Origin: an uncultured Thioalkalispiraceae bacterium
GTDB taxonomy: Bacteria; Pseudomonadota; Gammaproteobacteria; UBA6429; Thiohalophilaceae
Length of the DNA stretch: 19,508 bases
Reading direction: 5' to 3'
Assembly: GCA_964420605.1 (NCBI GenBank)
Contig: CAYQUC010000062.1
Coordinates: 1-19,508 of the forward strand
This document shows, piece after piece, positions 1,594 through 1,788 of this stretch. Numbering within the stretch: position 1 is the first letter of the stretch; every line of letters starts with the position of its first letter. The position numbers were made by a program, and so were the translations under genes. The notes under the pieces were generated by a model that did no database searches, was not told the origin of the DNA, and saw only the letters and a list, made by a program, of their open reading frames with translations.

Positions 1594-1788
1594 ATGAAAA
1601 TTAAAATCAGTATTACAAAAATTAGAAATTCATTACATGATCATCCTTTATTACGAAAAGGCGGGGTTCATGACAAGGCAGAAAAGACCAAACGAAGAAG
1701 TGATAAACAAAAACTGAAGAATGAATGGCGTTCTTTAATGACATTTTTAAATAGTATCATTAAAGAACCCCATTTATACCAAATATAG
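1594..1788 (+). CDS. arfA: ArfA-like small basic protein (alternative ribosome-rescue factor A family candidate), 64 aa.
   Basis: GGAG RBS 8 nt upstream. The protein contains 'LHDHPLLRKGGVHDKAEKTKRR', which resembles the ArfA core '[18 protein letters not shown]'. It is very basic. A perfect 11-bp hairpin lies within the 3' end of the ORF, as expected for arfA mRNA, which is cleaved by RNase III to give a non-stop message. Confidence 0.5.
   Translation: MKIKISITKIRNSLHDHPLLRKGGVHDKAEKTKRRSDKQKLKNEWRSLMTFLNSIIKEPHLYQI
1731..1767 (+). promoter_or_regulatory. Intra-ORF hairpin TTCTTTAATGA-(15 nt)-TCATTAAAGAA (11-bp perfect stem) near the 3' end of the arfA-like ORF. Candidate RNase III processing site.
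   Basis: Inverted repeat read directly. The stop codon lies at 1786-1788, just downstream. Confidence 0.5.

Follow-up and report, generated by a model that had tools for sequence, protein, structure and literature searches.

The window analysed here, a 19,508-nt stretch of contig CAYQUC010000062.1 from an uncultured Thioalkalispiraceae bacterium, contains, between two tRNA genes, a 64-codon open reading frame (ORF; positions 1594-1788, plus strand) that we refer to as gene X. We find that gene X belongs to a large unnamed family of small basic proteins, in most of whose members a conserved protein core is followed by an RNA hairpin that lies within the reading frame and is never preceded by the stop codon, a layout also found in the arfA gene of Escherichia coli. 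We propose, with a probability of roughly 0.5, that gene X encodes an ArfA-like factor that would be made from a stop-less mRNA and would couple ribosome rescue to the mending of RNA by the ligase RtcB.

Translation of the ORF yields a small basic peptide of 64 amino acids, MKIKISITKIRNSLHDHPLLRKGGVHDKAEKTKRRSDKQKLKNEWRSLMTFLNSIIKEPHLYQI, as quoted in the initial annotation of this DNA. A Shine-Dalgarno sequence, GGAG, can be read at positions 1581-1584 (plus strand), 9 nt 5' of the gene X ATG, and GGAG or GGAGA is kept at the same distance from the ATG in most of 19 gene X relatives. When the coding sequences of the 19 relatives were compared, differences at the third codon position (3168) outnumbered those at the other two positions (1322 and 724), the pattern expected of a coding sequence under purifying selection. 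Since gene X has homologues, a dominance of third-codon-position differences and a conserved Shine-Dalgarno sequence, we conclude that it is a real, conserved and evidently translated gene.

A search of 5.8 billion proteins returned 13 close homologues of X, and the X profile, when run against 1.84 billion cluster representatives, matched at least 569 clusters at E <= 1e-3. Nearly all family members are 44-112 amino acids long, with two of 150 among the matches listed being much longer. Genome and metagenome scans provided 38 + 74 X loci, and every locus with a taxon named below phylum is gammaproteobacterial; the taxa include Thiohalomonadales, Ectothiorhodospiraceae, Sedimenticolaceae/Thiodiazotropha, Chromatiales and Thiotrichaceae, as well as Kangiellaceae, Microbulbifer, Hahella, Porticoccus, Psychrobacter and Lysobacterales. 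Members present in NCBI and UniProt are always named "hypothetical" or "uncharacterized". The window X protein had no match in Pfam, NCBIfam (in both cases even at E <= 10) or PADLOC; in PHROGs it had a single weak match, to a family of unknown function (E = 0.096), and no X relatives were found on viral contigs.

The conserved family core reads RNxLHxHPLLRKGGVHxKSxKAKRxxxKxxLxKEW, with residues R11, N12, P18, K22, H26, K28, K31 and R34 conserved in at least 90% of 118 diverse members. In gene X, the core occupies codons 11-45 (positions 1624-1728, plus strand) and takes the form RNxLHxHPLLRKGGVHxKSxKAKRRxxKQKLKxEW, as seen in two alignments of relatives (A1 and A2), and in both of them conservation stops at W45. 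The tail behind the tryptophan (codons 46-64, positions 1729-1785, plus strand) is free to vary in sequence and length among relatives, the stop codon being located anywhere from +81 to +291 nt from the R codon of RKGGVH. An AlphaFold 2 model of X, with an extended N-terminus, one long helix and a predicted local distance difference test (pLDDT) score of 77, indicates a non-globular protein, and this is the sole thing that the model shows. Codons 11-45 are predicted to be part of the mature X protein, while the tail, whose sequence is dictated by the stem described below, is predicted to be absent from it.

The initial annotation had pointed to a perfect 11-bp stem in the last third of the ORF. 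This stem is real but was understated: its perfect core comprises 12 bp and lies within an intragenic RNA hairpin of 23 bp, which spans codons 43-62 (positions 1721-1777, plus strand) and, judged by folding and by comparison with relatives, is a candidate RNase III substrate or 3'-end-forming element. The hairpin is 57 nt long and consists of helices of 8, 12 and 3 bp separated by single-base bulges, with a loop of 7 nt. The 5' arm of the 12-bp core, GTTCTTTAATGA, is located at positions 1730-1741 and pairs with the 3' arm, TCATTAAAGAAC, at positions 1757-1768 (both plus strand). The gene X stop codon, TAG (positions 1786-1788, plus strand), lies 9 nt 3' of the hairpin. The predicted fold energy of a 71-nt segment with the hairpin was -23.0 kcal/mol, versus -6.2 +/- 2.45 kcal/mol for 200 dinucleotide shuffles (z = -6.86), and none of the 200 shuffles was as good. 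For 40 loci, the most stable 70-nt fold within the 3' portion of X was set against equal-effort blocks from the same locus; just 94 of the 1055 control blocks reached the stability of the hairpin in their own locus (median z = -1.8).

To describe the hairpin across the family, 109 unique X loci were surveyed, of which 107 were analysable. A hairpin of at least 18 bp, beginning no more than 80 nt past the Arg codon of RKGGVH, was found in 77 of the 107. The stop codon was located before the hairpin in none of these 77 members, inside it in 17, and after it in 60 (at a median distance of 22 nt). In 29 non-identical X genes that keep W at the same position (the W group), the stem has a common register: counted from the W codon, positions -3 to +19/20 are paired in 28 of them, and several stem positions are occupied by four to six canonical pair types. 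Stems from different lineages have hardly any sequence in common. In a MAFFT alignment of the 10 closest X genes (A6), 91.3% of cells paired, versus 50% or less when the register was slid, and six pairs had changed on both sides, versus 1.8 in shuffles (0 of 500 as high). The amino-acid similarity that remains in the tail (SLM...IKE) results from in-frame reading of the stem. Because of the conserved register, the covariation and this origin of the tail similarity, we conclude that the hairpin is under selection as an RNA within a reading frame. An intrinsic terminator was considered and rejected: the terminator scan revealed no terminator-like site or T tract at the window X hairpin, and a T-rich tail follows the hairpin in just 5 of the 77 members. 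The 7-nt loop of the window hairpin (UUUAAAU) was also considered as an anticodon-loop mimic, which was rejected because neither the size nor the sequence of the loop is conserved among relatives.

The arfA gene of E. coli K-12 (NC_000913.3) was run through the same script as a positive control, and the two layouts match closely. The coding sequence is 219 nt long in arfA and 195 nt in gene X. The arfA hairpin has 26 bp (nt 146-206 of the gene) and that of gene X 23 bp (nt 128-184); the main helix starts at the W51 codon of arfA, and the gene X hairpin starts 5 nt before the W45 codon. The stop codon follows 11 nt after the hairpin in arfA and 9 nt after it in gene X, and the spacing between the motif proline and the tryptophan is 28 and 27 residues, respectively. 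The arfA-type architecture claimed by the initial annotation therefore stands, and it holds family-wide: the ORF and its in-register, covarying hairpin are conserved, the tail is free, and E. coli arfA is built alike. RefSeq annotates an "arfA-derived small regulatory RNA", yrdG, over the 3' end of arfA in E. coli K-12 (L120, 2432-2485). The 3' fragment released from an ArfA-type hairpin can therefore have a separate role, and the same might apply to the X hairpin.

Most members of the X family share an operon with RtcB, a GNAT-fold protein or both, and in the majority of related loci RtcB neighbours X on the same strand. In most loci, X either comes at the end, behind RtcB, or is on its own, and some X genes are solitary amid unrelated housekeeping genes, as is E. 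coli arfA. Other members, that of the window included, are embedded in tRNA arrays that also contain an HNH endonuclease gene. In the window, 4-5 tRNA genes are found near X and, together with the HNH and RtcB genes, are all on one strand; X is flanked by tRNA-Asn and tRNA-Pro genes, and RtcB is located 4.2 kb downstream on the same strand, in agreement with the placement originally described. In the window's lineage, X has moved into the tRNA array. Around X, about a dozen related loci have 6 to ~22 tRNA genes of the same orientation; the number is 14 or more in roughly seven of these loci, and about 15-22 surround X in L012, L049, L050, L056, L061, L019 and L021. In 11 array loci, a tRNA-Asp gene begins 0-8 nt past the X hairpin, and in four (L012, L050, L054 and L061) the X ORF runs up to the 5' end of the neighbouring tRNA-Asp without meeting a stop codon, so that in these four a cut by RNase P would by itself suffice to make the message stop-less. 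The theme of a "damaged translation apparatus" put forward in the initial annotation is supported by the family, whose members are physically associated with RtcB in the majority of loci and with tRNA arrays in further ones. Two tRNA genes of the relatives, both called by ARAGORN, are unusual: one near RtcB in L020 (+2521..+2594 from X) has a stop anticodon (TTA), and one within the array of L050 (+1882..+1957 from X) is a "SeC(TCA)" tRNA. Both may be suppressor tRNAs carried by the islands.

From these data, we infer RNase III cleavage, control by transfer-messenger RNA (tmRNA) and rescue activity for X; the stop-less-mRNA reading draws on the precedents of ArfA and BrfA, both of which are produced from stop-less mRNAs (PMC8012679, PMC6881298). 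Gene X would encode a small basic, non-globular back-up factor for ribosome rescue or ribosome binding, similar to ArfA and BrfA. The 23-bp hairpin at the invariant W45 codon would be cut by RNase III, or would set the 3' end of the transcript, and in array-embedded relatives an RNase P cut at the adjoining tRNA may serve instead. The stop codon of X mRNA would thereby be removed or bypassed. Ribosomes would then reach the end of the stop-less message, and, as long as tmRNA works, the product would be tagged and degraded. Once trans-translation is saturated or damaged, an X protein of ~46-52 amino acids, ending near ...KQKLKNEW, would build up. Its Lys/Arg-rich segment (RKGGVH-KSKKTKRR-KQKLK) may enter the empty mRNA channel of stalled ribosomes, and the N-terminal hHDxPL(L/M)R segment may engage a release factor, with release of the nascent chain as the result. 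Because X is co-operonic with RtcB, and here lies inside an array of spare tRNA genes, its rescue activity would go together with the re-ligation, or else the replacement, of RNAs that ribotoxins or stress have broken. The RtcB linkage in particular suggests that rescue is coupled to the repair of broken RNA, as it is in the PrfH-RtcB2 system (PMC9304027, PMC6514570).

Several observations weigh against this proposal, and some of them bear at the same time on the possibility that X is a true, highly divergent homologue of ArfA, with a common ancestor, release factor 2 (RF2) as partner and control by RNase III. Membership of X in the ArfA family was not supported. Neither the window protein nor any of the 118 diverse relatives matched PF03889 or an NCBIfam model (0 of 118 at E <= 1 for any model), and when PDB sequences were searched with the A1 profile, ArfA was not found, although an E. 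coli ArfA query finds ArfA there. Thus, there is no significant ArfA match for X in Pfam, NCBIfam or PDB sequences, and by the hidden Markov models (HMMs) used X has no detectable membership in the ArfA family. The KGKGS motif of ArfA is likewise absent from the X family, which has RKGGVH(E/D)KSxK in its place. The resemblance of X to the ArfA core, in turn, stood as an alignment and was weak as a statistic. A profile-profile comparison with hhalign pairs LHDHPLLRKGGVHDKAEKTK--RR...EW with ArfA ...NW, so that LHDHPLLR is opposite LLHDPLFR and EW is opposite NW, the same alignment as had been drawn by eye. The match has P = 0.039 and a probability of 1.3%, obtained with a narrow ArfA profile of 20 enterobacterial sequences. 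Column-shuffled ArfA controls scored as high in 6 of 300 cases (empirical P of about 0.02). The power of this comparison is limited, as only close enterobacterial sequences were among the 120 matches listed from which the ArfA profile could be built, and we consider the marginal X-ArfA profile similarity suggestive only. The initial annotation held that its idea would fall if an ArfA match and conservation of the ORF and hairpin were both lacking; the ArfA match is indeed lacking, while the ORF and the hairpin are both conserved.

Common ancestry with ArfA would be a refinement of our proposal and is compatible with it. It would account for the order and spacing of elements common to the two families (hHD(x)PL-hydrophobic-R, some 24 basic residues, W and finally the hairpin) and is consistent with the low empirical P value and with the occurrence of both families in Gammaproteobacteria (PMC11633108). 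Given the failure of HMM searches, the low hhalign probability, the replacement of KGKGS by RKGGVH and the fact that ArfA, BrfA and ArfT are regarded as independent inventions, which makes convergence realistic (PMC8012679, PMC6881298), we nevertheless consider descent from a common ancestor doubtful. Two further points count against the proposal that X is a stop-less-mRNA-derived rescue factor. In addition to the 17 of 77 members with the stop codon inside the hairpin, three W-group genes stop 2-3 codons past the W, and members with a stop inside the hairpin would be stop-less only if the stem were cut very early. The tight operon linkage to RtcB and GNAT-fold genes could equally fit X being a cofactor or a substrate of those enzymes.

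In the window lineage, X is located upstream of tRNA genes, and the long tRNA arrays of Anabaena are induced by translational stress (PMC8421152). Gene X could on these grounds be a leader peptide or attenuator, in which the progress of the ribosome through the hairpin senses stress and controls the downstream tRNA array and repair genes. We give this explanation very little credence: the 35-residue core is strongly conserved across orders, unlike leader peptides, X in most loci comes last, behind RtcB, or is solitary, and there is no T tract behind the hairpin. The region between the tRNA genes is AT-rich and the ORF is short, as would be expected if the ORF and the stem were chance features of a spacer; hundreds of homologues with a purifying-selection signature in codon positions, the hairpin z score of -6.86 and the covariation in the stem refute a chance origin and leave it practically no probability. 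An ArfA-like rescue factor made from a stop-less mRNA is the reading of gene X that we prefer.

The tRNA genes next to gene X were identified with both ARAGORN and Rfam unless stated otherwise, and all are on the plus strand. The upstream neighbour of X is tRNA-Asn(GTT) at positions 1449-1523; tRNA-Pro(TGG), at 1811-1888, begins 23 nt past the X stop codon. It is followed at 1903-1969 by a tRNA-like gene that was found by Rfam only (50.6 bits) and not called by ARAGORN; it sits where the close relative L001 has tRNA-His(GTG) and may be a degenerate or unusual tRNA. Further downstream are tRNA-Gln(TTG), at 2189-2263, and a tRNA-Leu(TAA) of 74 nt, at 3091-3164. The latter is without the long variable arm expected of tRNA-Leu, and its counterpart in L001 (9511-9584) is called as tRNA-Tyr(ATA), so its identity is doubtful; the gene may represent an array tRNA that is atypical or in decay. 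Among the tRNA genes, a conserved ORF of 58 codons (Y58, positions 1991-2167, plus strand) occurs together with X in the tRNA-array lineage and has no Pfam match. Another small ORF, V50 (positions 927-1079), is likewise conserved with X in that lineage, and neither of the two matches any family. Y58 is present in 11 loci and V50 in eight; an overlap of 14 nt between Y58 and the end of X is seen in L003 and L007. An HNH endonuclease gene (positions 2323-2892, plus strand; Pfam HNH_5, E = 4.6e-17), also among the tRNA genes, is kept in related loci.

The remaining genes of the module encode an SPFH/Band-7 protein (positions 3433-4680, plus strand; Pfam Band_7, E = 3.2e-22), which co-occurs with X in L013-L015, L045 and other loci, a small SEC-C-motif protein (positions 5723-5995, plus strand; Pfam SEC-C, E = 4.8e-4) that is kept in L001, L005 and L013-L015, and the RtcB 3'-phosphate RNA ligase (positions 5968-7212, plus strand; Pfam RtcB, E = 1e-130). 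At the edge of the module, a divergently transcribed gene (positions 189-824, minus strand) encodes a 200-amino-acid protein that has no Pfam match and is kept at the module edge in at least 11 loci, some of them without tRNA genes; it could be the regulator of the module. The rest of the window is chromosomal, with a Wzy_C/TPR protein, pilins and zapD-coaE-pilD-pilC-pilB. At positions 7356-10995 and 12317-13454, the Wzy_C protein (O-antigen-ligase-like, with TPR repeats) and another TPR protein are encoded upstream of two type IV pilin genes, and by gene content the region resembles a locus for pilin glycosylation. The repair and tRNA module is inserted with this pilin region on one side and housekeeping genes on the other. 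A phage origin of the window was rejected, since there was no match to GenBank phage DNA, tblastn gave chance hits only, and the flanks are chromosomal; the window is a segment of a gammaproteobacterial chromosome.

Few small rescue factors that recruit release factors are known, namely ArfA, BrfA and ArfT, and each of them was found by genetics because sequence searches fail. According to the prediction of a review, there are further small proteins that recruit release factors (PMC8012679). In the present case a genomic signature alone, made up of a core that is conserved, a tail free of constraint and an in-ORF hairpin that covaries and is never preceded by a stop codon, singles out a large unnamed family (at least 569 clusters) spread over many gammaproteobacterial orders, and the signature can be reused as a search rule for further genes gated by trans-translation. 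In the literature searched, no link of an ArfA-like small gene with RtcB was found. Small rescue-type factors gated by a stop-less mRNA are of a known kind; with X, the family and the genomic setting would be new. The steady linkage of X to RtcB, GNAT-fold and SPFH genes and to tRNA arrays suggests that ribosome rescue is part of RNA-damage response modules beyond the one case of PrfH-RtcB2.

Each part of the proposal can be compared with systems already described. The long tRNA arrays of cyanobacteria (L-arrays), to which HNH and rtcB genes are linked, are induced by translational stress (PMC8421152). As in the L-arrays, the tRNA genes of the window have one orientation, an embedded HNH gene and a linked rtcB. 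The window differs in having just 4-5 tRNA genes, although its X relatives have about 15-22, and the L-array study mentions no small X-like gene between tRNA genes (PMC8421152). With the PrfH-RtcB2 operon, damage by ribotoxins is followed first by rescue and then by repair (PMC9304027, PMC9223846, PMC6514570); there, a rescue component adjoins an RtcB ligase gene, as the candidate rescue factor X does. PrfH is, however, a release-factor homologue with a GGQ catalytic domain of its own, while X, with 64 amino acids, has no RF-1 domain match and no GGQ. X would have to recruit a host release factor. PrfH genes are not known to have an in-ORF hairpin.

ArfT of Francisella tularensis is a 40-amino-acid rescue factor that uses release factor 1 or RF2 as its partner. 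Like X, it is a small basic gammaproteobacterial peptide that was missed by annotation, and its segment KKGGSTNKK, the only quoted segment that was compared, recalls RKGGVHEKSKK of X (10.1101/465609). BrfA of Bacillus subtilis, an RF2-dependent rescue factor produced from a stop-less mRNA, is similar in the control of its synthesis to what is proposed for X: a stem-loop within the ORF of this small protein forms the 3' end and places the protein under trans-translation control, and its C-terminal region is positively charged and has a conserved His (PMC6881298). BrfA differs in that its stem-loop is a typical intrinsic terminator with a T stretch, a feature rare behind X hairpins, and in being limited to the Bacillus group, having N-terminal helices and lacking sequence similarity to X.

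ArfA (YhdL, PF03889) is an RF2-dependent alternative ribosome-rescue factor of beta- and gammaproteobacteria (PMC8012679). It differs from X by the lack of a significant sequence or HMM match, by KGKGS where X has RKGGVH, and by genomic location, since X is mostly found in RtcB/GNAT-fold operons or tRNA arrays, whereas E. coli arfA lies between mscL and zntR. In its general design, ArfA resembles X in several respects: both are small basic proteins (72 and 64 amino acids, respectively) hosted by Gammaproteobacteria (PMC8012679), both have an hHD(x)PL-hydrophobic-R motif 27-28 residues ahead of a Trp, and in both genes a hairpin of 23-26 bp occupies the last third of the ORF, at the codon for that Trp, within a non-conserved tail that ends at a stop codon 9-11 nt further on.
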